A stretch of 64,000 nucleotides of DNA, from the NCBI GenBank assembly GCA_947475205.1, contig CANJNG010000001.1, forward strand, positions 679 through 64,678. The letters run 5' to 3'. Below are positions 1-60,171 of this stretch, piece after piece (position 1 is the stretch's first letter; every line of letters starts with the position of its first letter). The DNA comes from Bacteroidota bacterium. Lineage in GTDB: Bacteria; Bacteroidota; Bacteroidia; JAIBAJ01. The notes under the pieces were generated by a model. It was not told the origin of the DNA and searched no databases. It saw only the letters and a list, made by a program, of their open reading frames with translations. Position numbers and translations under genes: made by a program.

Positions 1-986
1 GGAAAAGAATACCCTATTACTACTAATATATTTGTGCCTTTTGCTGCCTCTATTGCTTTTTGATAATTTTCATTTTTACTAATCTCATTTTCCTCAAATG
101 CAAATCTAATATCTGATGAATCTTTATAAACCCCTTTTTTAAAAGAAAATTTTAGAAAAGCTCTACTTGATTCTAAATATGACTCAAAGGAATCTAAACC
201 ATATATTCCCGAAATGTCAGATTTTTTTTCATTTTTATCGGGTCTATAGCGACAAAGCCCATTCAAATGAATAGGCAATAGTGAACTTAAAGAACTATTT
301 TGGGATACGGCTGAACTTTTGATTTTATTAATTGGGAATATTTTAGTGTGAGGTTCAATGTAATCCATTAATGCTAATTCCATTTGAATATCATAGTTCC
401 AGGTTAAAACATTAATATTACTTGGAAATTTATCTGAAAAATCATCATATATAGTTGTAATGAAACTCCTATAGCGTTTATCAGATTCTCTTTCTGAAGA
501 ATATTCAAATCTTTCTTCATACGTTGAATAGTCCTTGTGGCCACCGTAAGTTAATGGAAATGGATTTGCTATGCAATCTAAATTATAAACTAATTGTTTA
601 AAAACCAGGTATTGTTCGAATATAAGTTTTTTTTCATAAAACCAAAGCTTGTCTTTATAGAATAAATATTTAAAATAAGTATCAATAGTCAAGAAGGAAC
701 TTGATTCTCTGCCTAAAGCCTCAACACTGATAATAAAGTTATGTAGTTGATTGTATCTATCTTTGTTTCCATTTAGATTGGCTAATCCTGTAAAATCGGT
801 ATATGTATTTACAACAGTACTAAAATTATTTAATTCTTCAGATAGAGAGTCATAACGCTTTAAAATTTTTACAAAGTGTTTTGGATTCTCTTCTGTTGCT
901 ACCTCTTCCTCTTGAAACCTTTCTTTAACTAATGGCAACACCCCTACGCTTGCACCTGCTCCTAATAAATATGTTATTTTTGGCAT
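1..986 (-). CDS. SIR2_2-like (SIR2 superfamily) protein, C-terminally truncated by the window edge; candidate defence-type NADase
   Basis: ATG at 984-986 on the minus strand. The frame was checked codon by codon down to position 3 and has no stop, so the gene runs off the window. The translation starts MPKITYLLGAGASVGVLPLV (GAGxS NAD-binding motif) and later shows TWNYD (the TTNYD-like motif), PIHLNG and VVIGYSF (the GYS motif), in the order seen in Pfam SIR2_2-type proteins. The region is ~30% GC against ~47% for the flanks. It is missing from the ORF track because it has no in-window stop. Confidence 0.5.
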   Translation of the reverse strand, partial: MPKITYLLGAGASVGVLPLVKERFQEEEVATEENPKHFVKILKRYDSLSEELNNFSTVVNTYTDFTGLANLNGNKDRYNQLHNFIISVEALGRESSSFLTIDTYFKYLFYKDKLWFYEKKLIFEQYLVFKQLVYNLDCIANPFPLTYGGHKDYSTYEERFEYSSERESDKRYRSFITTIYDDFSDKFPSNINVLTWNYDIQMELALMDYIEPHTKIFPINKIKSSAVSQNSSLSSLLPIHLNGLCRYRPDKNEKKSDISGIYGLDSFESYLESSRAFLKFSFKKGVYKDSSDIRFAFEENEISKNENYQKAIEAAKGTNILVVIGYSF

Positions 987-3087: not shown

Positions 3088-4947
3088 TTGATGAACAAAA
3101 CCACTGAGATTAAGAAAGATGTTACGATTTTGTTTGCCGGCGACAGTGGCGATGGAATTCAACTCACCGGAACCCAGTTTACAAACACCAATGCCCTTTT
3201 TGGCAACGATTTAAGCACTTTCCCTAATTTCCCTGCCGAGATACGGGCCCCCCAAGGCACTTTGGCCGGAGTGTCGGGCTTTCAATTGCATTTTGGAAGC
3301 GAACAAATTTATACTCCCGGCGATGAATGCGATGTGTTGGTGGTAATGAATGCGGCTGCCCTAAAAGCGAATCTTAAAAACCTAAAAGCCGGAGGAAGCA
3401 TTATTGCAAACACGGACGGTTTCGACCCCAAGAATTTGAAATTGGCTAAATATCCCGATGGAGTTCAGCCACTCGAAGATCATTCGCTCGATAAATTCAA
3501 ACTCTATACCATCGATGTTACCAAAATGACCAAAACGGCTTTGGCCGATAGTGGTTTGGGTACAAAAGAGATTGACCGCACAAAGAATATGTTTGTGCTT
3601 GGTTTCATTTGTTGGATGTATAACCGTTCGCTCGAAACCAGCGTCAATTATGTAAAAGAACAGTTTCGCAAAAAGCCCGAAATTGTTGAAGCCAACACCA
3701 AGGTTTTGAAAGCCGGTTACCATTTTGGCGAAACCAGCGAAACCTTCACCACCCGCTATCAGGTGGAGAAGGCTGCGATGCCTCCCGGAGTGTATCGCAA
3801 TATAATGGGCAACCAGGCAACAGCTTTGGGTTTATTGGCTGCTTCAAAACTATCGGGCTTGGAAATGTTCTTTGGAACCTATCCCATTACGCCCGCGTCC
3901 GACATATTGCACGAGCTATCGAAATACAAGAATTTTGGGGTGAAAACCTTTCAGGCCGAAGACGAAATAGCAGCCATTACTTCAGCTATTGGAGCAAGTT
4001 TTGGCGGAGCATTGGGTGTTACATCATCATCCGGCCCCGGCATTGCCTTAAAAGGCGAAGCTATTGGTTTGGCTTTGATGCTCGAATTGCCTTTGCTCAT
4101 CGTAAACGTTCAGCGGGGCGGCCCTTCCACCGGATTGCCCACCAAAACCGAACAAGCCGATTTGATGCAAGCAATTTATGGCCGAAATGGTGAAAGTCCG
4201 GTTCCCGTGATAGCAGCTTATTCGCCTTCCAACTGTTTCGATACGGTGATAGAAGCGGCCCGTTTAGCTGTTGAATTTATGACTCCCGTTTTCTTCCTTT
4301 CCGATGGATATATTGCCAATGGTGCCGAACCATGGCGTTTCCCTAAGGAAGCCGATTTGCCTAAGATTACCCCGGTGTTCGCCACCATTAATTCTAAAAC
4401 CGAAGATGGCAAGTTTCTTCCCTACAAACGTAACGAAAAGCTAAGTCGCGAATGGGCAATTCCGGGCACAAAAGGATTGGAACATCGCATCGGAGGCTTA
4501 GAAAAAGAACACGAAACCGGAAACATTAGCTACGACCCCGCCAACCATGAGTTTATGGTGAAAATGCGTCAGGCCAAAGTGGATAAAATTGCCGACTATA
4601 TCCCCTTGCAGAAATTGGAATCAGGCCCTGAAAAAGGAAAACTCTTGATTGTGGGCTGGGGGAGCACTTACGGTTCTATCACCGCAGCCGCAAAGCAGGC
4701 CGTTGCCGAAGGGATTGAAGTATCGCATGTTCATTTACGTTATCTGAATCCTTTACCTAAAAACTTAGGTGAAATCCTTTCCAACTTCGAACGGATTATT
4801 GTTCCTGAAATGAATAATGGCCAGTTGGTGCGTATTCTGCGTGACAAATACTTAGTGCCTGCTGAAGGATTTAATAAAATTAAAGGAGAACCATTTTCAA
4901 CGAAAGAAATTTTAGGGAAGATTAGAGAAGCTGTTTTAGTTAGTTAA
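3088..4947 (+). CDS. korA: 2-oxoglutarate/2-oxoacid:ferredoxin oxidoreductase subunit alpha
   Basis: 619 aa with a KorA-like domain order (gamma/alpha region). It sits 16 nt after the NifU gene and directly before the TPP-binding beta subunit. Confidence 0.85.
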   Translation: MMNKTTEIKKDVTILFAGDSGDGIQLTGTQFTNTNALFGNDLSTFPNFPAEIRAPQGTLAGVSGFQLHFGSEQIYTPGDECDVLVVMNAAALKANLKNLKAGGSIIANTDGFDPKNLKLAKYPDGVQPLEDHSLDKFKLYTIDVTKMTKTALADSGLGTKEIDRTKNMFVLGFICWMYNRSLETSVNYVKEQFRKKPEIVEANTKVLKAGYHFGETSETFTTRYQVEKAAMPPGVYRNIMGNQATALGLLAASKLSGLEMFFGTYPITPASDILHELSKYKNFGVKTFQAEDEIAAITSAIGASFGGALGVTSSSGPGIALKGEAIGLALMLELPLLIVNVQRGGPSTGLPTKTEQADLMQAIYGRNGESPVPVIAAYSPSNCFDTVIEAARLAVEFMTPVFFLSDGYIANGAEPWRFPKEADLPKITPVFATINSKTEDGKFLPYKRNEKLSREWAIPGTKGLEHRIGGLEKEHETGNISYDPANHEFMVKMRQAKVDKIADYIPLQKLESGPEKGKLLIVGWGSTYGSITAAAKQAVAEGIEVSHVHLRYLNPLPKNLGEILSNFERIIVPEMNNGQLVRILRDKYLVPAEGFNKIKGEPFSTKEILGKIREAVLVS

Positions 4948-7030: not shown

Positions 7031-9370
7031 TTACACCCGCACTCCCATCACCAAAATATCGTCTACTTGCACTTTATTGCCTTTAAACTCTTCGAGGTAG
7101 TTGCGAAGGAAGTTTCCCTGTTCAAACATGGGTGTATCTTGCATAGATAAAACAAGTTCTTTAAACCGCCGTTTGGTGAGTTTACGTTCGGGTTCGCCAC
7201 CAAACTGGTCGGCATAACCATCGCTGAACACATAAATGCTATCACCTTTTTCCAATTGAATGGTATGGTTTGTAAAAGGTAGCGAAGCATCATCGTATTT
7301 TCCAACCCCTTGATTATTCCCTTTTACTTCAATAAGCTCTCCTTTTCTTACAATCCAAAGTGGGTTGTTTGCTCCTGCCCATTGCAGCATATTGGTTTCT
7401 GGGTTAAACAGGCATAGCGAAGCATCCATCCCGTCGGAGATTTCATTTTCGCTTTTCGAGAAATTCTCTACCACTATCTCTGACACTTTATCTAATATTT
7501 TAGCTGGTTCGGTAATGCCAAATTCGCGTACCGCTCTGTTCAATGCATTATTGCACACCACCGAAACCATAGCCCCCGATACTCCGTGGCCTGTGCAGTC
7601 GCAGGCAGCGAACAATACAGATCCTTCCCAGCCACCAAGCCCCTCTCCATCTCTCCCCAAAGGGGAGAGGGCAAATGCCGTATCCTCGTTATGCGTTAGC
7701 CGCATTAACTCCTCCCCCTTTGGGGGAGGCTGGGAGGGGGCCTCCATCCAATAAAAATCCCCGGCAATAATATCTTTAGGCATATAAAGAACAAAGGAGT
7801 TTTGCAGATATTGCTTCACAATTTTGGTGGGTGGCAGTATGGCATTTTGTACCCGCAATGCACAGTTGATGGATTCGAGAATCTGAACGTTTTTGAATTC
7901 TACAATCTCTTTTTGGGTGATTACTTCTAAGCGTTGTTGTTCGATGGTATCGCGTTGCCGCAGGGTGATTTTGTATCGATTATAAACAAAAGCTATAAAA
8001 AGTGCGAGCACAATAAGCCCCACAATCAAGCCAATTCGGACGTTCTTTTGGTTTTTGATAACCAATTCCTGATTCTCTTTTTCTGTATTTAGTAGTTTTA
8101 TTTGTGCTTCCTTTTTTTCAGATTGATACTTCCCATCAAGTTCCTGAATTAGCTGAGCGTTGTTTTGCTGAGCTAGGCTATCGGTATAGTACACACAATC
8201 TTCATAATATTCATATGCCGCTTTGTAATCTCCGGCTTTATATTTTAAGGATGCTAAAGAACGCAGTGCATCGCACATCTTCACTAACCGCTTTTCCTCG
8301 TGGGTTTCGGCTATTTTAAGGGCAGTTTCGAGATATTCTCCCGCTTTGTCATATTGCTTCAATCGTCCATATATTTTGCCATAATATCGGTTAATGTTGA
8401 AATCAAATTGATTGATGTTATGCTCTTTCCCAATGGCTACCGCTTTATCTAAAAAGGATAAAGCCTTGGGAGAGTTATCGTCATAAATATAGAAATGGCT
8501 AAGGTTTACGATATACATAATCTGGCTAGCATAATCGTTTTGCTGTTCGGCAATTTGCACGGCTTTGGACAAATACTCTACTTCTTGGGCGTAGTTTTCC
8601 ATTTGCGAATACATATCTGCGGCCAGGGATAAGCCCTCGGCTTCGAGGCTCAAATCCTTAATTTCCTTAGCCAATCGTATCATTCTTTCATAGTATTCTA
8701 ACGATTGCTCATAGTTTTTTATGCGTTTGAACACCGAACCAACAAAATGCAGCAACTGCCCATAATCGGCTGTCATTATGTGATGCTTTTCATAAATATC
8801 TTGCGACTGCTGCATAAAATGCAAGGCAGTTGTATAGTCTTCCTTGTCGTAATAGTTTCGGCCTTTATCGCGAAGCAGCTTAGCTTCAAAGGCTATGTTT
8901 CCGGCCGGGAGATAGTCAAAAGCACTATCGTTATACATTAGGGCTTTTGAAGGCGAAAACTGAATTGCCCAACAGTGCGACATCAGGTAATAAAGCTCTG
9001 AAAGATATTTGGTGCTCTTAGTCTTTCGGGCTTCATCAATGCCGATTTGTATTGTAGGAAGAGCTTCTTCGGCCTGGTCAGCATCTAACCAGCCACGGCC
9101 AATTTTGAGGCAGCTGCGTTGTTTGTGATCTGAGTTCGTTTCTTTGGCAATATCGGCAAGCAGTTCCTGGGTTAAATGCTTTGCGGCCACCCTATCGGTA
9201 ATTACAAAATGGCGGAATATTCTGATTTTGGTGTTAATCCGTTCGGTATCGGATTTGGCTGCTGCAAGGGCTTTTTGAAGCGAATCGAGATTTGCTTTTT
9301 GGGAATAGGTTTTGGAATATCCCAAACAAAAGATGAGCAGGAAGCTCAAAACCCGAAATAAGTTTTTCAA
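7031..9370 (-). CDS. TPR-repeat sensor with a SpoIIE/PP2C-type serine phosphatase domain
   Basis: 779 aa. It has a signal peptide, multiple TPR-like repeats, one TM helix, and a C-terminal PP2C signature (GDFYW..., CDCTGHGVSGAMVS, FSDGYADQFGG). Confidence 0.8.
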   Translation of the reverse strand: MKNLFRVLSFLLIFCLGYSKTYSQKANLDSLQKALAAAKSDTERINTKIRIFRHFVITDRVAAKHLTQELLADIAKETNSDHKQRSCLKIGRGWLDADQAEEALPTIQIGIDEARKTKSTKYLSELYYLMSHCWAIQFSPSKALMYNDSAFDYLPAGNIAFEAKLLRDKGRNYYDKEDYTTALHFMQQSQDIYEKHHIMTADYGQLLHFVGSVFKRIKNYEQSLEYYERMIRLAKEIKDLSLEAEGLSLAADMYSQMENYAQEVEYLSKAVQIAEQQNDYASQIMYIVNLSHFYIYDDNSPKALSFLDKAVAIGKEHNINQFDFNINRYYGKIYGRLKQYDKAGEYLETALKIAETHEEKRLVKMCDALRSLASLKYKAGDYKAAYEYYEDCVYYTDSLAQQNNAQLIQELDGKYQSEKKEAQIKLLNTEKENQELVIKNQKNVRIGLIVGLIVLALFIAFVYNRYKITLRQRDTIEQQRLEVITQKEIVEFKNVQILESINCALRVQNAILPPTKIVKQYLQNSFVLYMPKDIIAGDFYWMEAPSQPPPKGEELMRLTHNEDTAFALSPLGRDGEGLGGWEGSVLFAACDCTGHGVSGAMVSVVCNNALNRAVREFGITEPAKILDKVSEIVVENFSKSENEISDGMDASLCLFNPETNMLQWAGANNPLWIVRKGELIEVKGNNQGVGKYDDASLPFTNHTIQLEKGDSIYVFSDGYADQFGGEPERKLTKRRFKELVLSMQDTPMFEQGNFLRNYLEEFKGNKVQVDDILVMGVRV

Positions 9371-24911: not shown

Positions 24912-24923
24912 AACCCAACCACA

Positions 24924-25130
24924 ATGGACATCACCCGCGGCCACTGGATTTTCGCCCTCCTCTTCACCATCGGCTTCATCATCATGATGTTTTTCGCCTA
25001 CCGCGACGACATCAAAGCCAACCCCCAATACTTCAAAGGCTCCTGGAAAATCACCCTCATAATCGTCGGCTCCATCATGGTTCTCGTAGTCATAAAAATC
25101 CTCTTTCGGTTTTCAGGATATACCCTTTAA
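24924..25130 (+). CDS. small two-TM membrane protein (68 aa)
   Basis: Starts 13 nt after the HK stop and has two clear hydrophobic helices. Confidence 0.45.
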   Translation: MDITRGHWIFALLFTIGFIIMMFFAYRDDIKANPQYFKGSWKITLIIVGSIMVLVVIKILFRFSGYTL

Positions 25131-25385
25131 ATTCTTTTTTGGAGCAGAACCTTTGGCATTTCAAGCCAACGTTTGGGTCCCGCTATCCGTTCCAAGTCCG
25201 CCAGCCCCACAAGCCAAACCCACTTCGGGCTTTCCACTCCTATCGGGGCTAAACCGAAAGGACCGTATTTCAAACTAACGGTTGCTAAAATACCCTTCGG
25301 CGGCTTTAATTACCCTTACCCTTCTACTCACCCCCTTCAATACACTTCACAAGCTTATCGTCACTATACTCACGTCAATAACTAC

Positions 25386-25595
25386 GTTTCGCATGCCCAC
25401 CTCTACCGTACTCGCGTCCATCACGATGCTTCGCACATCTAACACTACGGTACTCACGACTATCACGATGCTTCGCACGTCTATCACTACTGTACTCGCG
25501 ACTATCACGATGCTTCGCACGTCTATCACTACTGTACTCGCGTCCATAACGATGCTTCGCACATCTATCACTACTGTACTCGAGTTCAACACTAC
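25386..25595. repeat. 42-bp tandem repeat, about 5 copies (consensus CTATCACGATGCTTCGCACGTCTATCACTACTGTACTCGCGA)
   Basis: Units at 25386, 25428, 25470, 25512 and 25554 with >90% identity between the middle copies. The array sits in a 660-bp non-coding, strand-asymmetric region that is C-rich on the top strand. Confidence 0.85.
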
Positions 25596-25789
25596 GACCC
25601 TCACTTAATACATGTTTTGAAAAATAATGCCATGAATGATTAAATTCTTTAGCCTAGTAGCAAAAATACACCCATCAATTTTCCTCTAAATTAAAAGTTG
25701 TACCACAATTATTTCAAGGCATTCAAATCAAATTTATAGCCCCTAACATAACCATTCTCCCCTTCTAATTCCCCATTACCTTTGCCCCA

Positions 25790-35588: not shown

Positions 35589-37247
35589 CTAGTTTTTCAC
35601 TAAAACTGCTCTATATGTTTGAGTTTGGCTAGTGGACAGCACATTATAAATGCCGGCAACAATGCCAGAGATATTTATGGTTTCTTGGCCATTCTGCGTG
35701 TCTTGTGACAGCACGGTTTGCCCTAGACTGTTAATAATACTTATGGTTCTTGATTGCGGTTTGTCGAATGTAAGGGTGATGGTTTCCTTACTAGGGTTAG
35801 GGAATAGTGCAAGCCTTGGCAAAGTAGCCTCATTTATATCTGTTAAGTTGCTAAGCTTTATCACCCAATAATCAGAACCTCCGTGATTGTTTGTTACCTC
35901 TCCGTTATTAGAAACCGTATATCCAGCAACTATATATCCTCCATCGGTGGTTTGCTGAATGGAAGTCCCAAAATCACTTTCCGTTCCGCCTAGACATTTT
36001 TGCCACTTTATAGCTCCTGCTGTATCGAGCTTCACCACCCAATAATCATAGCCGCCATGGTTGCCGCTTACATCCCCGTCGTTGGAAGAGGTAGAACCGG
36101 CAACTATATAACCTCCGTCGGTGGACTGCTGGATGAAATAGCCTGGCTCTGCTTGGGTGCCGCCGAGGCATTTTTGCCATTGAATGGTTCCGCTTGAATT
36201 GATTTTCACCACCCAAGTATCAATTTCTGGCGACTGGCTGTGATTGTCGCTTACATTCCCGTTATTGGAAGACGAGTATCCTACCAGAATATATCCCCCA
36301 TCATTGGTTTGTTGAATATAAGTACCTGTTTCTTCATGTGAGCCGCCATAGCTTTTTTGCCATTGTATTGCTCCGGAAGTATCGAGTTTTACCACCCAAT
36401 AGTCAGACCCTCCATGGTTGCCGGTTACATCCCCACTATTGGAGGAGGATGCCCCTATAGCTGCATATCCTCCATCGGTGGTTTGGATTACGGAACCTAC
36501 GAATTCACCACTATATCCACCAAGGCATTTTTGCCATTGTATTGTGCCGGCAGTATTGAGCTTCACGACCCAATAATCAGTTCCACCATGAAAGCCGCTT
36601 ACATCTCCGTCATTAGCACTTGCAATTCCTCCAACAATATATCCTCCATCGCTGGTTTGATTTATGGAATTTAAGTAATCATCGCCTGTGCTACCGAAGC
36701 TTTTTTGCCATTGTATTGCTCCTGTGGCATTGAGTTTTACTACCCAATAATCCCATCCTCCGTGATTGTTGGTCACATCGCCATCGGTGGATGAAATATA
36801 TCCGGCTACTATATATCCACCGTCGCTGGTTTGCTTAACATTACCTGCATATTCATCGTTTGTGCCGCCAAGGCATTTTTGCCACTCAATAGCACCCGTG
36901 GCGTCTTGCTTTACAACCCAGATGTCGGAATAAGAATACCAAGTGGAATCTGTATAAAGATAATTGCCATCAAAATCATAAATATCTTCATAAGTGTACC
37001 CTCCGTTAAAATGCAAGCCACTTACATCGTTGTCGGTTGACGCGGCAATTCCTACAAAAATATAACCTCCATCAGAGGTTGGTTGAATGAATCCTCCTGA
37101 ACCTTCACGATCTGTACCTCCAAGGCATGTTTGCCATTCAATATCTGGATCTTGTGCTTGGCAATGGGTTGTTGATAATTGGAAATTAATAAGGAGCAGA
37201 AAGAAGAGAGATAGTTTATTCATTTTAAACAAGGCAATTATTTGCAA
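35589..37247 (-). CDS. T9SS type A sorting-domain (Por C-terminal domain) cargo protein with about 8 tandem ~47-aa repeats
   Basis: Repeats of the form TSDGGYIVAGY...GDV(S/T)xNHGG.DYWVVKL...G.IQWQKCLGG. The C-terminus has a Por_Secre_tail-like ALFPNPSKETITL...YRAVLVKN. Confidence 0.75.
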   Translation of the reverse strand: MQIIALFKMNKLSLFFLLLINFQLSTTHCQAQDPDIEWQTCLGGTDREGSGGFIQPTSDGGYIFVGIAASTDNDVSGLHFNGGYTYEDIYDFDGNYLYTDSTWYSYSDIWVVKQDATGAIEWQKCLGGTNDEYAGNVKQTSDGGYIVAGYISSTDGDVTNNHGGWDYWVVKLNATGAIQWQKSFGSTGDDYLNSINQTSDGGYIVGGIASANDGDVSGFHGGTDYWVVKLNTAGTIQWQKCLGGYSGEFVGSVIQTTDGGYAAIGASSSNSGDVTGNHGGSDYWVVKLDTSGAIQWQKSYGGSHEETGTYIQQTNDGGYILVGYSSSNNGNVSDNHSQSPEIDTWVVKINSSGTIQWQKCLGGTQAEPGYFIQQSTDGGYIVAGSTSSNDGDVSGNHGGYDYWVVKLDTAGAIKWQKCLGGTESDFGTSIQQTTDGGYIVAGYTVSNNGEVTNNHGGSDYWVIKLSNLTDINEATLPRLALFPNPSKETITLTFDKPQSRTISIINSLGQTVLSQDTQNGQETINISGIVAGIYNVLSTSQTQTYRAVLVKN

Positions 37248-41139: not shown

Positions 41140-41571
41140 CTACCCTTTAATCTCCATAAAAGCCCCCTTCTTATTCAGGTTTATCACTGCCTGTAGTTTT
41201 CGAAGCACATTTGTTCCCAATACGCCATCAATAGGGTCTTTCCCCATAGAAGCATAGGATTGATTAACGTGGGACAAATCCATCAATACCATGTGGAACT
41301 TTTTTAATTTAAGGTCGCCAATTTCCAGTGATTTAAGTTTCACATAATGGCTTTGCATAGAGTTTGTGCCAAGCCCGGTAGATAGCGATTCGTTTTCCTT
41401 TGGTTTTTCGTCAGTGGAAAAGGACTTGAATCGCTCTATGTCCATAACAGAATGCGTTGCACCGGTATCCACCAAAAAACTGGCCTTTAGCCCGTTTATT
41501 TTCAGTTTAAGAAAATAATGATAGCCGTTTTTTTCGTGTTCTACCTCTACGAGCTTTAGTTTTTGCTTCAT
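41140..41571 (-). CDS. retropepsin-like (clan AA) aspartic protease
   Basis: 143 aa with the LVDTGATHSVMD DTG active site. Confidence 0.7.
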   Translation of the reverse strand: MKQKLKLVEVEHEKNGYHYFLKLKINGLKASFLVDTGATHSVMDIERFKSFSTDEKPKENESLSTGLGTNSMQSHYVKLKSLEIGDLKLKKFHMVLMDLSHVNQSYASMGKDPIDGVLGTNVLRKLQAVINLNKKGAFMEIKG

Positions 41572-51621: not shown

Positions 51622-51796
51622 TTAGAATTGCAAATGTATCATTTCGGTAGGTTGGGGTTTGTTAGAATGGCGTTTTCTTAAAACAACCTTTCATTTTTAC
51701 AAAAAACATCAAAATCAATCCTCAGTCGAACATTTTTGTTTTTTCATCGTTACGATTGCCGTATTCAAAAAATCGTACATTTGTCCATTCAATTCA

Positions 51797-53908
51797 TTGA
51801 AGACTAAGGCTTACATAGTAGCATTTTTTTGCTTTTTTATCATTTCGGTAAAGGGCTATGGGCAGTTGCAAGCGGATGTATCCCAAACACCAACCGATTT
51901 AGTTCAGAATGTGCTTTTAGGAGGCGGCGTAACAGCAAGTAATATTACATATACCTGTGGTTCAACACAAATGGGTTATTTCTTTGGAAGTTCAAATTTA
52001 GGACTTTCATCTGGTATCATAATGAGTACTGGGTTTGCAATAGATATTGTAGGCCCAAATGATAATTTAGCGGTGTCCAATCTATTGTTGGGGCCGGGCG
52101 ATTTTACATTAGACGCCGTTGTAGCTCCTTTAACTACAAACGATGCTTGCGTTTTAGAGTTTGATTTTATTCCACTTACCGACACTGTAAGTTTTCGATA
52201 TGTGTTTGGTTCAGAGGAATACGCACAGTTTGTAGGTACAAGTTTTAATGATGTCTTTGGCTTTTTTATTAGTGGTCCCGGAATTCCAGTTCCAACCAAT
52301 ATTGCTATAGTGCCTGGAACAGTTTCTACTCCTGTAAGTATTAATAATGTAAATGGCACAACCAATTCAGCATATTATGTAAATAATGGAGACTTGGCGG
52401 GTGTCCCACAAGGGCAGACTGTTCAGTACAATGGGTTTACTACTGTGCTAACAGCAACCTCTACGGAAGTTACACACTGCGAAACCTATCATATTAAATT
52501 GGCCATAGCCGATGTTGGTGATGGTGCGTACGATTCCGGTGTTTTTCTTGAGGCTGGCTCATTCTCATCTGGTACAGTAAGCCTTTCTTCTCAAGCCGAT
52601 TATTCTTCTTCCTTAAACGATACTGCCCTTTTTGAGGGCTGCGGAAGTACTAAAATTATTTTTGAACGGGGCGGAAATACTTCAGAACCATTAACCATTA
52701 ACTTTAATGTTACGGGTACCGCTACTCAAGGGGTTGATTATACCCTTTCTTCTACAAGTGTTACTATCCCTGCAGGTTTCAATATTGCATCTATTGATTT
52801 GAACACGATTTATGATAATGTTTCCGAGCCACTCGGCGAAAGTGTTACAATCACTCCAGTTATTACTTTCTTATGTGCTGCCCAAACACCCCCGTCTATC
52901 ACGCTTACCCTCGCCGATCAGCCCCCATTATCTGTAACCACATCACCCGACTTCACTACTGCCTGCCCGGCACAAACCACTTTTGAGGCTTTCCCTCAGG
53001 GCGGAATTCCGGGTTATGTGTATGAATGGAAAGATAGCACGGGCACAGTTCTCAGTACGCAAAGCACCTTAACCGCTTTTCCACTTCAAACAACGCATTA
53101 TTCTTTAACTGTTACTGACACCTGCAAAAACCAACAGGCGACGGCTACAGCATCCGTAATTATTCCAGGTTATACTCCGATGCAGTTTGAATTGGCACAA
53201 GCCAGTATTTGCAAAGGCGACACTGCACGATTAGTTGTTAATGTTACCGAAGGTAAAGCTCCTTACACCTATTTATGGCCAAGCACAGGCAGTATCAATA
53301 ATTTCACTTTTGTAGCTCCATCTGTTTCGGGTAGCTTTACTGTCCAAGTAACCGATTTGTGTGGAATAGTAGATAATGCTTCTTCTCGGGTAAGTGTGGT
53401 TGGTCCCAAAGCCCAATTCTCTTCCAACCAAACCGCCGAACGCGATTTTGTGTTTACCAATCAATCGGTTGATGCCATATTTTATTATTGGAATTTTGAT
53501 GATGGCGACACTGCTCAAACATTAGATGCAGCTCACTCCTTCCCTGATTCAGGTTGGTATAATGTGTTGCTAACCGTAGAAAACAGGGAAGGCTGCTTCG
53601 ATACAGCAAGCTTACTGATTCACGCTTTCCCCGATTTGAATGTCTATATTCCCAATGCATTTACCCCTAATGGCGATGGAAAGAACGATTCATTTTATGC
53701 CGATGGTGAAGGATTCGCTACCTCGGATATGAAAATTTACGACCGCTGGGGACAGGAAGTATATCATGCCGAACATCAGGCTTGGGCTTGGAACGGACAA
53801 TCGAGAAGCGGTGTAAAATTAGAAGGGATGTATTGTTACGTTTTTGAATTCGTAACGCCGCTTGGCAATGCAGTCAAACGCATGGGGCATGTTATGGTGG
53901 TGAGGTAA
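51797..53908 (+). CDS. T9SS type B (gliding motility-associated C-terminal domain, CHU_C) cargo protein with a choice-of-anchor-L-like N-terminal domain
   Basis: The C-terminus NAFTPNGDGKNDSF...IYDRWGQEVY...WNGQ...GMYCYVF is the canonical T9SS type B sorting domain. The most plausible start is the TTG at 51797, which gives the signal peptide (M)KTKAYIVAFFCFFIISVKGYGQ. The ORF track begins at the upstream ATG at 51659. Confidence 0.75.
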   Translation: MKTKAYIVAFFCFFIISVKGYGQLQADVSQTPTDLVQNVLLGGGVTASNITYTCGSTQMGYFFGSSNLGLSSGIIMSTGFAIDIVGPNDNLAVSNLLLGPGDFTLDAVVAPLTTNDACVLEFDFIPLTDTVSFRYVFGSEEYAQFVGTSFNDVFGFFISGPGIPVPTNIAIVPGTVSTPVSINNVNGTTNSAYYVNNGDLAGVPQGQTVQYNGFTTVLTATSTEVTHCETYHIKLAIADVGDGAYDSGVFLEAGSFSSGTVSLSSQADYSSSLNDTALFEGCGSTKIIFERGGNTSEPLTINFNVTGTATQGVDYTLSSTSVTIPAGFNIASIDLNTIYDNVSEPLGESVTITPVITFLCAAQTPPSITLTLADQPPLSVTTSPDFTTACPAQTTFEAFPQGGIPGYVYEWKDSTGTVLSTQSTLTAFPLQTTHYSLTVTDTCKNQQATATASVIIPGYTPMQFELAQASICKGDTARLVVNVTEGKAPYTYLWPSTGSINNFTFVAPSVSGSFTVQVTDLCGIVDNASSRVSVVGPKAQFSSNQTAERDFVFTNQSVDAIFYYWNFDDGDTAQTLDAAHSFPDSGWYNVLLTVENREGCFDTASLLIHAFPDLNVYIPNAFTPNGDGKNDSFYADGEGFATSDMKIYDRWGQEVYHAEHQAWAWNGQSRSGVKLEGMYCYVFEFVTPLGNAVKRMGHVMVVR

Positions 53909-54051
53909 GGAATCAACAGAATTCGAACTGACGTTAAACTAATGAAAATTATTCGATTTCCATTTCCTCCAAAAGCTTCCAACTAATTAGTTGAACGCAA
54001 CCCACGAAGTGGCTCTTTGACACAAATAAAAAATAAAGCAATAGTCCAAAA

Positions 54052-54540
54052 TCCCTAAGCCCGGAACCCTCTACGGTAAATGCTTGAGAGCATTCCCTGA
54101 TCCCCGAACCCCTTCAAGCAATTGCTTGAGAGCATTCCCTAATCCCTTAATCAGTTCAAGCAATTGCTTGAGAGCAATCCCTAAGCCCGGAACCCTCTCC
54201 GGCAAATGCTTGAGAGCAATCCCTAAGCCCGGAACCCTCTCCGGTAAATGCCTGAGAGCAATCCCTAAGCCCGGAACCCTCTCCGGCAAATGCCTGAGAG
54301 CATTCCCTAAGCCCGGAACCCTTTCCGACAAATGCCTGAGAGCATTCCCTAGGCCCGGAACCCTCTCCAGCAAATGCCTGAGAGCATTCCCTAATCCCGA
54401 AACCCTCTCCGGTAAATGCTTGAGAGCAATCCCTAAGTCCCGAACCCGTTCAAGTAAATGCTTGGAAGCATTCCCTAAGCCCCTAATCCGTTCACGCAAT
54501 TGCTTGAGAGCATTCCCTAGGTCCCGAACCCGTTCTAGCT
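54052..54540. repeat. 42-bp tandem repeat array, about 12 copies (consensus TCCCTAAGCCCGGAACCCTCTCCGGCAAATGCTTGAGAGCAA)
   Basis: Units lie head-to-tail every 42 bp from 54052, with point variants only and no intervening spacers. The last unit is degenerate. Both strands keep long open frames (152 and 164 aa) only because of the periodicity. Confidence 0.9.
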
Positions 54541-54569
54541 GATTCATTTGTGAAACAAAACACAAGTTG

Positions 54570-54595
54570 ACTCAGGTTTGCAACCTGAGTTTTTA
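54570..54595 (+). terminator. terminator-like hairpin immediately downstream of the 42-bp array
   Basis: ACTCAGGTT-TGC-AACCTGAGT followed by TTTTTAGG. Confidence 0.45.
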
Positions 54596-54873
54596 GGTAT
54601 GAAGGTGCGAAACATCCTTCGAAACACCTTCCACTTTTTATTCATAGAAAATTAACAATGGGAAGCCCTTTTCTTCCATACATTTCAATTCACGGCAGGT
54701 ATATATTGGCTGCAAAATTCAAAACTCCATTTAATTTGCTCAACCCTATTGTATATGCATAGGTATGCAATCGGGGTTTTATGCTAAGAAGAACGAATAC
54801 CTGTTTTATGGGTTTTTAAACCCAATCTTTTTGTAAGCCGATGCCTTTAATGAAATAAAACTATCTTCGCCCT

Positions 54874-55818
54874 ATGGAAAAAAGCATCGAAGAACTCGAA
54901 CGCCAATTCAACGAAAAAATAGAAAAAGGCATAAAGATTGAACCCAAAGACTGGATGCCAGACCGCTACCGCAAGCAATTGCTGCGGATGATGAGCCAGC
55001 ATGCACACAGCGAAGTGGTAGGAATGTTGCCCGAAGGCAATTGGATTACCCGGGCTCCCAGCCTGAAACGCAAAACTGTTTTATTGGCCAAAGTGCAAGA
55101 CGAAGGTGGTCACGGACTCTACATTTATTGTGGAGCCGAAACCTTGGGCGTGGACAGAAGCGAAATGATTCAGCAATTGCTCGATGGAAAAGCCAAGTAT
55201 TCCAGCATTTTTAATTACCCTACCGTTTCCTGGGCCGATATTGGCACAATTGGCTGGTTGGTTGACGGGGCCGCAATTGTAAACCAAACCCTCTTAGCTA
55301 AAGGTTCCTATGGCCCATACAGTAGGGCAATGGTAAGAATTTGCAAAGAAGAAAATTTCCATCACCGTCAGGGCTACGAGCTTATTTCAACCTTAATGAG
55401 TGGCACACCCGAACAGCGAGCCATGGCTCAAGATTCGTTTAACCGCTGGTGGTGGCCTACTTTAATGATGTTTGGCCCATCCGATGCTCATTCACCAAAC
55501 AGCGGCGAGTTGCTGAAATGGAAAGTGAAACTAATGACGAATGACGAATTGCGTCAACGCTTTATTGACCGCACCATTCCGCAAGCCGAAGCACTTGGAA
55601 TTACTATTCCTGACCCCGATTTAAAGTATAACCCCGAAACCAAGCATTACGAATACGGCCAACCCAATTGGGAAGAGTTAACCAACGTAATTAATGGAAA
55701 TGGGCCTTGCAACAAGCAACGCCTCAATACCCGAATTGAAGCAGAGGCAAACGGACAATGGGTGCGTGAAGCGGCCGAAGCCTATGCTGCAAAACGTGCA
55801 ATGAAACAGGCCAGTTAA
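54874..55818 (+). CDS. paaA: 1,2-phenylacetyl-CoA epoxidase subunit A
   Basis: 314 aa with the di-iron ferritin-like PaaA signature. Confidence 0.85.
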
Positions 55819-55825
55819 CCCCACA

Positions 55826-56104
55826 ATGAAAAACAACCTTAATCTATACGAAGTTTTTATACAACCCAAGCCGGGTTTACCTCACCAACATGTTGGCAGT
55901 GTTCATGCCTCGGATTCCGAAATGGCCCTTCAAAACGCCCGTGATGTTTATACCCGCCGCGAAGAAGGTCGGAATATCTGGGTAGTGCCTTCGGTGCATA
56001 TTGCAGCCAACTCGCCCGAAGAAGATGGCTATTTCTTCGACCCGGCAAACGATAAAATCTATCGGGCACCGATGTTTTACAATACCGGAAACATTAAAAT
56101 GTAA
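55826..56104 (+). CDS. paaB: 1,2-phenylacetyl-CoA epoxidase subunit B
   Basis: 92 aa. The NLYEVFIQPKPGLPHQHVGSVHA sequence is a typical PaaB. Confidence 0.85.
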   Translation: MKNNLNLYEVFIQPKPGLPHQHVGSVHASDSEMALQNARDVYTRREEGRNIWVVPSVHIAANSPEEDGYFFDPANDKIYRAPMFYNTGNIKM

Positions 56105-56106
56105 GG

Positions 56107-56868
56107 ATGGAAGTAAAACAAAAAGCTCTTTTCGATTATCTGCTTTGGTTGGGCGACAATGGGCTTATCCTTGGACAACGCATTGCTGAATGGTGCGGCC
56201 ACGGCCCCTATTTGGAAGAAGACATAGCCCTTACTAATATTTCACTTGATTTGATTGGTCAGGCTCGTGCTTTTCTTTCCTATGCCGGAGAGTTGGAGGG
56301 AAAGGGCAGAGATGAGGACAAACTGGCTTTCTTTCGCAACGACAGGGAATTTAAAAACAATCTTTTAGTAGAAGAGCCCAATGGCGATTTTGGTAAAACC
56401 ATTTTACGGCAATACTTTTTCAGTGTTTTTGCTGAATTATTGTTTGAAAAGCTATCCGCATCAAACGATGAAAAATTAGCTGCTTTGGCTGCTAAATCTT
56501 TAAAAGAAGTAAAATACCACAAAGTGCATTCTCAAAAATGGTTACTACGCTTGGGCGATGGTACCCCTGAAAGCCATTCCAGAATGCAAGCCGCCTTGAA
56601 CGAAATGTGGCATTTAACGGGAGATTTATTTGAGAATGCAGAAAGCGACAACCTGCTTTTTTCTGAAAGGATTGCTTTTGATTTAGCCGAAACTAAACCA
56701 CATTGGAGCAAAGAAGTGATTTCCGATTTATTGGAAGCAAGCCTTCAAATTCCAACAAACGCATTTATGCTCAAAGGCGGGCGAAACGGTTTTCATTCCG
56801 AACATTTAAGCCACATTCTCACAGAGATGCAAGCACTGCCACGGGCGATACCCGAAGGAAAGTGGTGA
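56107..56868 (+). CDS. paaC: 1,2-phenylacetyl-CoA epoxidase subunit C
   Basis: 253 aa with a PaaC/PaaI-like ferritin fold. It follows paaAB with 2-nt spacing. Confidence 0.75.
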   Translation: MEVKQKALFDYLLWLGDNGLILGQRIAEWCGHGPYLEEDIALTNISLDLIGQARAFLSYAGELEGKGRDEDKLAFFRNDREFKNNLLVEEPNGDFGKTILRQYFFSVFAELLFEKLSASNDEKLAALAAKSLKEVKYHKVHSQKWLLRLGDGTPESHSRMQAALNEMWHLTGDLFENAESDNLLFSERIAFDLAETKPHWSKEVISDLLEASLQIPTNAFMLKGGRNGFHSEHLSHILTEMQALPRAIPEGKW

Positions 56869-56967
56869 GGTTGAAAACTTATTCATAATTCTGACTTATC
56901 TACCTTTGTCAAATGTAGAAACAAGGGTATTTCTGCTAATTTTGCCGCTTCTTACGAACACACACAA

Positions 56968-59031: not shown

Positions 59032-60171
59032 ATGCAAACCACAGAACTTTCCCCTTTAGAATTACTTCATAAAAACAATTCATCCGATTTTTTACCCCTT
59101 AAAGGCACCGACCACGTTGAGTTTTATGTGGGAAATGCCAAACAAAGTGCATACTACTATCAAGCTGGCTGGGGATTTGAACTAGTCGCTTATGCAGGTC
59201 CGGAAACCGGCCTTAAAGACCGTGCGAGTTATGTGCTGCAACAAGGTAAAGTTTGGTTGGTGCTAACCACTTCTTTCGACCCCGAAAGCGAAATTAGCCA
59301 GCATGTTCGTAAACACGGCGACGGCGTAAAAGCCCTCGCTCTTTGGGTGGATGACGCAGAAAAAGCTTTTGAAGCCACCACAAGTCGCGGTGCCGTGGCT
59401 GTTCATCCGGTTAAAACTATCAAAGACCAATGGGGCGAAGTAAAACTGGCTTCTATTAAAACATACGGCGAAACCATTCACACGTTTATAGAACGAAAGA
59501 ACTATACCGGTGCTTTTCTTCCGGGGTATCAACCGAAAGCGAGTGCTTTCAAGGCCGAAAGTGTGGGTTTGCAATTCATCGACCATTGTGTTGGAAATGT
59601 AGGCTGGGGCGAAATGAACACCTGGGTGAAGTTTTATGAAGAGGTCATGGGCTTTAAACTACTTATCACCTTCGATGATAACGACATTGGAACGGAATAC
59701 ACCGCACTAATGAGTAAAGTGGTGAGTAACGGAAACGGTTATGTAAAATTCCCGATAAATGAGCCCGCCGAAGGGAAAAAGAAAAGTCAGATTGAGGAAT
59801 ATATTGATTTCTATGGTGGAGCTGGGGTGCAGCACTTGGCATTAGCAACAGATGACATTATTAAAACCGTTACCGAACTTCGCAAACGGGGTATTGAATT
59901 TTTGCAAGTTCCCGAGACTTACTATGAAGATTTGCTTTCTCGTGTAGGGAAAATAGACGAAGACATTGCAGACCTGAAACGCTTGAATTTATTGGTAGAT
60001 AGAGATGAAGAAGGGTATTTGTTACAGCTTTTCTCAAAACCGGTAGAAGACCGCCCAACCGTTTTCTATGAAATCATCCAACGCAAAGGAGCAAAATCGT
60101 TTGGCAAAGGAAATTTCAAAGCTTTGTTTGAAGCTATTGAAAGAGAGCAAGCCTTGAGAGGAACGCTATAG
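59032..60171 (+). CDS. hppD: 4-hydroxyphenylpyruvate dioxygenase
   Basis: 379 aa with two VOC modules (HVEFYVGNAKQ..., IDHCVGNV...) and the C-terminal FGKGNFKALFEAIE. Confidence 0.9.
   Translation: MQTTELSPLELLHKNNSSDFLPLKGTDHVEFYVGNAKQSAYYYQAGWGFELVAYAGPETGLKDRASYVLQQGKVWLVLTTSFDPESEISQHVRKHGDGVKALALWVDDAEKAFEATTSRGAVAVHPVKTIKDQWGEVKLASIKTYGETIHTFIERKNYTGAFLPGYQPKASAFKAESVGLQFIDHCVGNVGWGEMNTWVKFYEEVMGFKLLITFDDNDIGTEYTALMSKVVSNGNGYVKFPINEPAEGKKKSQIEEYIDFYGGAGVQHLALATDDIIKTVTELRKRGIEFLQVPETYYEDLLSRVGKIDEDIADLKRLNLLVDRDEEGYLLQLFSKPVEDRPTVFYEIIQRKGAKSFGKGNFKALFEAIEREQALRGTL

Follow-up and report, generated by a model that had tools for sequence, protein, structure and literature searches.

A hypervariable intergenic minisatellite of palindromic 42-bp units downstream of a type IX secretion cargo gene in a Bacteroidota lineage

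By definition, the palindrome of a repetitive extragenic palindrome (REP) bears at one end an unpaired tetranucleotide tag, GTAG or CGTC (PMC3733652). The E. coli REP325 cluster consists of 12 palindromic units in the 3' untranslated region (UTR) that separates yjdM from yjdN, two genes in tandem. There it serves as a leaky, partly Rho-dependent terminator and stabilizes the upstream mRNA, giving rise to a ladder of truncated transcripts (bioRxiv 10.64898/2026.03.23.713779). We describe a tandem array of 42-bp units in a 64-kb stretch of a Bacteroidota genome (contig CANJNG010000001.1 of assembly GCA_947475205.1; this whole stretch is referred to as the window), located between a gene for a cargo protein of the type IX secretion system (T9SS) and paaA. 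The array is a non-coding minisatellite, or variable-number tandem repeat (VNTR), of imperfect palindromic units. It is like REP clusters and BIMEs (bacterial interspersed mosaic elements) in being built of extragenic 30-50 bp imperfect palindromes with conserved mismatches, in comprising up to about 12 tandem units and in its probable 3' UTR position between co-directional genes.

A hypervariable, non-coding tandem array

Tandem Repeats Finder (TRF) reported one strong array in the window, at 54052-54531, with a period of 42, 11.4 copies, 84% matches, 0% indels and a score of 568. Listing the units in register extended it to the boundaries given in Table 1, in agreement with a preliminary description of the window, made from the letters alone, that had put about 12 copies there. 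Every unit lies head to tail in a single orientation and without spacers. The variable columns of the units show two to three states each, and the central units are near-identical. All 11 occurrences of the 19-nt unit core GCYTGAGAGCAWTCCCTAR in the window (three or fewer mismatches allowed) fall inside the array, compared with 0.06 expected from shuffles. On the + strand, C makes up 34% of the array and G 19%.

Table 1. Features of the array, its units, its surroundings and related or neighboring repeats (window coordinates unless another contig or unit positions are given)
Feature	Position	Strand	Description
T9SS cargo gene	51659..53908	+	PKD, SprB repeat and CHU_C type B sorting domain; Pfam CHU_C 5.9e-18, PKD_4 6.4e-12
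Spacer, cargo stop codon to array	53909..54051	+	143 nt, A-rich
Tandem array	54052..54540	+	11 full 42-bp units (54052-54513) and a 27-nt partial unit (54514-54540), cut in register
Unit search string			GCYTGAGAGCAWTCCCTA
Unit arm A'	unit positions 12-26		GGAACCCTCTCCGGC
Inner spacer between arms A' and A			4 nt, AAAT
Unit arm A	unit positions 31-42 and 1-3 of next unit		GCYTGAGAGCATTCC
Outer spacer after arm A			8 nt, CTAAGCCC
Type I units	center of array		CTCTCCGGC / GCCTGAGAG; near-identical to each other
Type II units	both array edges and edges of second locus		TTCAAGC / GCTTGA
ORF through array	54071..54565	-	164 aa; ATG at 54547 (158-aa protein); 14-aa repeat LGNALKHLPERVPG; judged spurious
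ORF through array	54084..54542	+	152 aa; judged spurious
Terminator-like hairpin 1	54569..54595	+	10-bp stem 54569-54591 (RNAfold), UGC loop, U run
Terminator-like hairpin 2	54601..54641	+	GAAGGUG...CACCUUC stem (54601-54631), then U run CACUUUUUAUU
paaA	54874..55818	+	Pfam PaaA_PaaC 5.4e-87; first gene of paaABC, then dnaN
Second array, same unit family	L009 480-586		3.5 units; ORF P0001 called across it
Other 42-bp array	25403-25582		4.3 copies (TRF), 21-bp sub-period; in gap 24912-25789

The interior of the array differs between near-clonal strains. Alleles were written with one letter per distinct unit, and all are taken from short-read assemblies. The window allele is ABCDEF-GHIJK (11 full units). 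A contig that spans the whole array (L003) reads ABCDEF-LMF-GHIJK (14 full units), so that three additional central units (LMF) stand between two identical units. Partially covered alleles read ..(F)LMFGHIJK in L002, L006 and L008, ..NOFGHIJK in L001 and ..LPLGHIJK in an NCBI metagenome-assembled genome (MAG; L004). There are thus at least four array alleles among strains that are otherwise ~100% identical over tens of kb; the flanks of the array show 0-1 mismatch over 2-16 kb between assemblies, and the other assemblies are 99.99-100% identical to the window. The comparison of copy number between strains that the preliminary description had called for therefore reveals variation (11 vs 14 full units), and its suggestion of a hypervariable minisatellite is borne out, also by a second locus with the same unit family. 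The array interior is a hot spot of mutation and its edges are stable, which is the pattern expected of slippage or unequal exchange. The array breaks short-read assemblies, and most contigs with an identical PaaA end inside it. The locus can serve as a strain marker for this near-clonal freshwater population. Only two other indels distinguish the near-clonal assemblies: one of 1 nt at ~58823, in a Methyltransf_21 gene (244 aa vs 220 aa in L002/L164), and one of ~20 bp in L165 at ~60082-60090, near the end of a glyoxalase-family gene.

The preliminary description had placed the array in a gene-free gap. The gap does hold a long open reading frame (ORF) on each strand (Table 1), neither of which looks coding. 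Since 42 is divisible by three, half of the six frames of the consensus unit stay open. Log-odds scores of codon usage, trained on 40 genes of the window, were negative for the array in all six frames (-0.11 to -0.53), as compared with 0.35 +/- 0.08 for the genes (minimum 0.16); the best-scoring frame, that of the 164-aa ORF, lies 5.7 standard deviations below them. Variable sites are spread over the three codon phases as 7/6/8, with no 3-base periodicity and no third-position excess. The ratio of nonsynonymous to synonymous polymorphism (pN/pS) is 0.61 in the 164-aa frame and 0.66-0.76 in four others, so that no frame stands out. Depending on the contig, gene callers annotate either the - or the + frame, and spurious 'hypothetical proteins' from either strand of the array now sit in public protein collections.

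Protein searches led to the same point. A word-indexed search of 5.8 billion proteins with the - frame returned one true relative, P0001, which is the ORF called across the second locus; its N- and C-termini are unrelated to those of the window ORF and it overlaps the neighboring peptidase gene. The same search with the + frame returned only P0002, an unrelated ORF of 11-aa repeats. A hidden Markov model (HMM) of three-unit (42-aa) segments had no match, and an exhaustive HMMER scan of 1.8 billion representative proteins gave 161 matches, all of them unrelated proteins of 7-, 8-, 14- or 24-residue periodicity. It is extremely unlikely, in our estimate, that the - strand encodes a real 158-aa protein of 14-residue LGNALKHLPERVPG repeats. 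In favor of such a gene are the ATG-initiated ORF that covers the whole array, its annotation in some contigs, and a repeat that reads as amphipathic and faintly like a leucine-rich repeat (LRR); one of the 161 matches, P0010, is an LRR protein that carries ALEQLPESIGGLG. Against it stand the codon usage, the even spread and undistinguished pN/pS of the variable sites, the trivial openness of half of the frames, the discordant ORF at the second locus, the choice of the + frame by gene callers elsewhere and the lack of true homologues among the representative proteins. Given its codon usage, the codon phase and pN/pS of its variable sites, ORFs that disagree in their ends and strand, and this absence of homologues, the array is non-coding.

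Palindromic units and their transcriptional context

Arms A and A' of the unit are imperfect reverse complements in which 11-12 of the 15 positions pair, and each unit is thereby an imperfect palindrome of 34-38 nt. The preliminary description had noted small internal inverted repeats of 16 nt. These are intact only in the central units, as CCGG...CCGG; the edge units instead carry TCAAGC AATT GCTTGA, and the full palindrome is longer than had been noted. The type I units of the center and the type II units of the edges preserve the palindrome via partly different pairs.

Pairing and covariation were computed on 18 distinct units. Under a model of one long hairpin per unit, 71.5% of cells are paired, as compared with 24-47% when the partners are slid. 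Three pairs are altered on both sides; at positions 24/33, for example, the units show GC in 8, AU in 4, GU in 4 and other combinations in 2. The covariation score is 0.148 vs 0.123 for shuffles (5 of 500 reach 0.148) and at most 0.073 for slid partners. An alternative model of two small hairpins per unit pairs 78.9% of its positions, but with covariation no greater than in shuffles, and was rejected. As the units share descent, covariation is moderate evidence at best for a selected palindrome, and it does not single out a strand. The predicted hairpin energy per unit is -10 kcal/mol on the + strand and -13 kcal/mol on the - strand, vs -4.5 +/- 2.5 kcal/mol for shuffles, and the whole array folds with a z-score of about -8 on either strand.

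The flanking genes are those previously proposed, a T9SS type B cargo gene (Pfam CHU_C/PKD) upstream and paaA (Pfam PaaA_PaaC) downstream. The spacer that follows the cargo stop codon includes a perfect palindrome of 14 nt, CAACTAATTAGTTG, at 53980-53993; it has no hairpin followed by a T run and shows no unusual folding (z-score -0.6). The array is separated from paaA by 333 nt in which both terminator-like hairpins are located. The first of these had been predicted at 54570-54595 as a hairpin with a T-tract, and it was recovered: an inverted-repeat search finds 9 perfect pairs (54570-54578 / 54582-54590) around a 3-nt loop, which RNAfold extends to 10, followed by a U run. Read on the - strand, hairpin 1 has no U run after its stem. 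It is a real structure and not the only one, since a second + strand hairpin of the same kind follows it (-11.5 kcal/mol by RNAfold). Folded jointly, the two give z = -3.9, and none of 200 shuffles folds as well. The nearby dnaN had raised the idea of an origin of replication with iterons, which was discarded because there is no enrichment of DnaA boxes and no skew switch.

The array could also be a non-coding RNA gene in its own right, with its own promoter, ending at 54569-54595 and processed to 42-nt hairpin RNAs or acting as a multi-site sponge for an RNA-binding protein. A sigma-70-like match, TTGACA-17-AATAGT (54017-54045), does end 7 nt ahead of the array, terminators directly follow it, and its units are regular hairpins. 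That single promoter-like match is less than the 2.7 expected by chance in the region, however. Housekeeping promoters of Bacteroidota use TTTG / TAnnTTTG, and the TAnnTTTG motif is absent from both strands over 52664-56901. An Rfam search of 53000-55500 (E<=10) gave only two chance-level matches, both outside the array, and a gathering-level scan of the whole window gave a single match, a Flavo-1 RNA at 25172-25254, and none in the array. Nor is there a partner protein gene nearby or a conserved leader shared with the second locus. We regard an independent RNA gene as very unlikely. The earlier suggestion of a transcribed repetitive RNA is itself plausible, with a 3' UTR more likely than a separate RNA gene.

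The array would most likely be part of the cargo gene's 3' UTR, based on its sense-strand position between that gene and two intrinsic terminators. There is no terminator ahead of the array and two after it, the gap has no Bacteroidetes -7 box, and the + strand is C-rich and G-poor. We tentatively propose, with a probability of roughly 0.45 and by analogy with REP325, that the array forms, in this 3' UTR, a string of hairpins of the REP/BIME kind that acts as a leaky terminator and as an mRNA stabilizer. It is hypothesized that the array is transcribed on the + strand as part of the cargo mRNA, and that about 11 consecutive hairpins in a C-rich, G-poor RNA block 3'-to-5' exonucleases and so stabilize that mRNA, while also attenuating read-through towards paaA. 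The array would grow, shrink and become homogenized in its center via replication slippage or unequal recombination between units, and copy number may thereby be a heritable dial on both stability and read-through.

A second locus, distribution and a recurring 42-bp period

A second array of the same unit family was found through called ORFs (Table 1). It lies ~95 nt downstream of another T9SS cargo gene (Peptidase_M1/Por_Secre_tail), has the same orientation relative to that gene as the window array has to its own, and likewise begins and ends in arm A'. It is identical in seven assemblies. The only link placing both loci in one genome is that four samples hold both; the tetranucleotide correlation between the second locus and the window is r = 0.919, where values inside the window are 0.93-0.96 and those for other low-GC Bacteroidota-like loci 0.87-0.92. 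No leader or tail is common to the two loci, and their flanks have only chance matches of 14 nt or less. The second array abuts an insertion sequence (IS) with a DUF772 transposase gene (L009 1-480, L010 786-1166). The contigs of the seven assemblies break within this IS, which is why we consider it multi-copy. An IS next to palindromic repeats recalls the REP-targeting IS elements.

No further copies of the unit were found in the window or in ~25 kb of extensions. An identical PaaA occurs in only a handful of ENA/Logan metagenome assemblies and in one NCBI MAG (GCA_947468485.1). Among 185,579 GTDB species representatives, the best PaaA match has 73% identity, so that there are no close relatives for comparative work; TRF applied to 80 PaaA loci of GTDB genomes found no related array. 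GTDB representatives, JGI metagenomes and IMG/VR contained no match to a DNA pattern built on the core of two units, and BLAST of the array against plasmids and phages gave none. A relaxed three-unit pattern returned 58 loci from JGI metagenomes, almost all of them unrelated 42-bp arrays or coding repeats. Only L143 (JGI Ga0302274_10018834) shares more than the forced core, with GCWTGAGAGCAATCCCT conserved at 16/17 positions and a TTCC..GGAA dyad. Its array (695-1117; 42 bp x 10.1, 95% matches) lies 46 nt after a 205-aa ORF and is convergent with a MarR gene, and judging from these shared letters it is a possible distant relative. A further JGI candidate, L139, was rejected as a GC-rich look-alike.

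The main rival to the 3' UTR proposal is that the array is a neutral by-product, in which a palindromic seed (e.g. a former hairpin 3' of a gene) was amplified by slippage and is tolerated in a non-essential gap with no selected function. The unit family is lineage-restricted, the array is hypervariable within an otherwise clonal population, and degenerate edge units around a homogenized center are expected from unequal exchange alone. The genome also readily makes such duplications, as indicated by an unrelated 42-bp unit present in one copy or in at least 2.8 copies depending on the strain, and another cargo gene in the window has no array. Neutrality does not readily account for the retention by both unit types of ~11-12 of 15 arm pairs through different positions, with GC, AU and GU variation at one pair, or for the agreement of the two loci in position 3' of a T9SS cargo gene, in orientation to that gene and in boundary phase. 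Judging from REP325, a tract of 11 hairpins within a transcription unit would almost certainly affect RNA 3' processing. We consider a purely neutral origin somewhat unlikely, and the alternative that most deserves attention.

Several observations weigh against a string of regulatory hairpins in the cargo 3' UTR. Only two loci of the unit family are known. The T9SS cargo gene (Por_Secre_tail) at 35589-37247 (-) in the window has no array downstream. The family is confined to one lineage, as would suit an element that is young and possibly neutral. The covariation depends in essence on a single split between type I and type II units, a signal that descent alone can produce, and the slightly better folding of the - strand per unit means that structure cannot identify the functional strand. 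The difference of three units lies between identical units that share a 67-bp identical stretch, so that assembly collapse in one assembly is possible; the order of the longer allele, ..(F)LMFGHIJK, was reproduced in four independent assemblies. If the proposed function holds, '3' UTR hairpin dials' of the REP325 type would extend from Enterobacteria to Bacteroidota, and the arrays of 3, 11 and 14 units behind T9SS cargo genes would form a natural series of alleles in which hairpin number could be related to mRNA stability and read-through. A Peptidase_S15/Por_Secre_tail gene is located ~8 kb to the right of the window end (L163 11999-12973).

The 42-bp period recurs in this species. The preliminary description had pointed to a second, unrelated array of this period in the window, which TRF confirms (Table 1); the 878-bp gap that contains it is 100% identical in five other assemblies, with no copy-number variation. 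A third unrelated unit, TTGCCAAGGTTCTATATGTAGAATGATGCCCGGACACAGGTT, ~0.5 kb to the left of the window start, is present as a single copy in L166 (~4493-4540) and in at least 2.8 tandem copies in MAG GCA_947477075.1 (L167 3-118), where the contig ends inside the array. Among arrays of 2.5 or more copies and a period of 15 or more, every one seen in the species repeats at exactly 42 bp, as compared with periods of 15, 18, 20, 21, 21, 21, 28, 45, 54, 90 and 95 in ~700 kb of other Bacteroidota loci. The three unit families (25403-25582; 54052-54540 with its L009 relative; L167 3-118) are mutually unrelated, two of the three are copy-number polymorphic, and the three 42-bp arrays are all located 3' of genes, in stretches whose sense strand is rich in C. 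This is a small unexplained regularity. It is distinctly unlikely, in our view, that some process or constraint in this lineage gives rise to tandem duplications of exactly 42 bp, equal to four helical turns, and expands them at unrelated intergenic sites that are C-rich and lie 3' of genes. If it does, the palindromic family would be a tunable 3' UTR element on T9SS cargo genes whose copy number sets the expression of surface or secreted proteins, much like a contingency locus. The recurrent period and the T9SS cargo link are the only features that could raise the significance of the array.

The period also bears on a role at the level of DNA, raised by the preliminary description as a protein-binding array, in which the dyad GAGAG..TTCC N8 GGAA..CTCTC of each unit would be a site for a dimeric DNA-binding or nucleoid protein, presented on the same helix face every 42 bp. 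The dyad symmetry of the unit, a period of exactly 4 x 10.5 bp and its recurrence in three unrelated arrays are consistent with such a platform. There is no adjacent regulator gene, however, the GGAA half-site is changed in 5 of 12 units (CGAA, TTAA, GAAA, CTAA), and both copy number and unit sequence vary freely among clonal strains. The other 42-bp arrays are unrelated and lack dyad symmetry, so any protein shared between them would not be sequence-specific. We give a binding platform little credence.

The remainder of the window contains housekeeping genes, T9SS cargo genes and the Flavo-1 RNA (RF01705), which together mark its source as a Bacteroidota chromosome. The Flavo-1 match is on the - strand, with 46.3 bits against a gathering threshold of 42, and lies ~150 bp from the 25403-25582 array; it is antisense to the flanking + strand genes, in a gap with a strong excess of C on the + strand (C/G 2.4). 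Among metabolic genes, 41140-41571 (-) encodes a retropepsin-like aspartyl protease of 143 aa (Asp_protease_2, 1.2e-15). In L017, a Bacteroidetes MAG with a PaaA 72% identical to that of the window, there are a (CA)n microsatellite of ~23 repeats (7960-8005) and, upstream of a small gene, a 21/42-bp array (8160-8360; 8.4 x 21 bp); neither is related in sequence to the window array.

Comparison with known repeat systems

REP and BIME clusters, like the array, vary between strains in location and copy number, and the array unit is, as a REP is, a short (20-50 bp) imperfect extragenic palindrome. The array differs in that its units contain no GTAG or CGTC; directly 5' of the palindrome the - strand reads TTAG (in most units), CTAG or TCAG. 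Its units are all in one orientation, whereas REP clusters alternate Y and Z. Only two array loci are known as compared with hundreds for REP, the sequences are unrelated, and the host belongs to the Bacteroidota and not the Gammaproteobacteria. No gene for a REP-associated tyrosine transposase (RAYT; Y1 / IS200-like) was found among the 47 window ORFs scanned with Pfam. The array thus resembles a REP/BIME cluster but is not a canonical member of that class.

Mycobacterial interspersed repetitive units (MIRUs), the VNTRs of M. tuberculosis, have reportedly been described by Supply et al. as direct tandem repeats, 40-100 bp long, that occupy several intergenic loci, in many cases between the genes of a single transcription unit. 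Like the array, MIRUs are polymorphic in copy number among near-clonal strains and have a period that is a multiple of three, with ORFs running through them. Unlike it, they lack palindromic symmetry, and some may be translated in overlap with the flanking genes; sequence and phylum are also unrelated.

BrickBuilt elements of Porphyromonas gingivalis come from the same phylum and are likewise spacer-less tandem minisatellites that are always intergenic, occur at multiple loci and are restricted to a species (PMC4596501). They have units of 23 nt as compared with 42 nt here, leader and tail sequences with the inverted-repeat ends of a MITE (miniature inverted-repeat transposable element), 19 copies per genome and promoter activity (PMC4596501). 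A MITE of this type was rejected as an explanation of the array, since leader and tail sequences with terminal inverted repeats were not found and the two loci share none.

TIGR (tandem interspaced guide RNA) arrays also have tandem units of ~36-42 nt in numbers of 5-15, with truncated end units and a rho-independent terminator after the array, and a stem-loop variant exists (PMC12045711). They differ in having two conserved 8-12 nt repeats that alternate with variable spacers of ~9 nt, which differ from unit to unit, and an adjacent Tas gene with a Nop domain (PMC12045711). A TIGR-Tas system was discarded because the array has no variable dual spacers and Pfam found no Nop domain among the window ORFs. 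The array shares with CRISPR loci the regular repeats with internal dyad symmetry and a unit of 42 bp, which is within the CRISPR repeat range. As the preliminary description had argued, it is not one, having no spacers, and the 64-kb window has no cas genes or domains. The sole Rfam CRISPR-DR match is weak (17.5 bits vs a gathering threshold of 39) and lies outside the array.

Spacer-less units of 10-100 bp, polymorphism between strains and non-coding sequence are the hallmarks of a minisatellite or VNTR, and the array shows all three. It is a new lineage-specific example of the bacterial intergenic minisatellites with palindromic units, and not a new kind of system.

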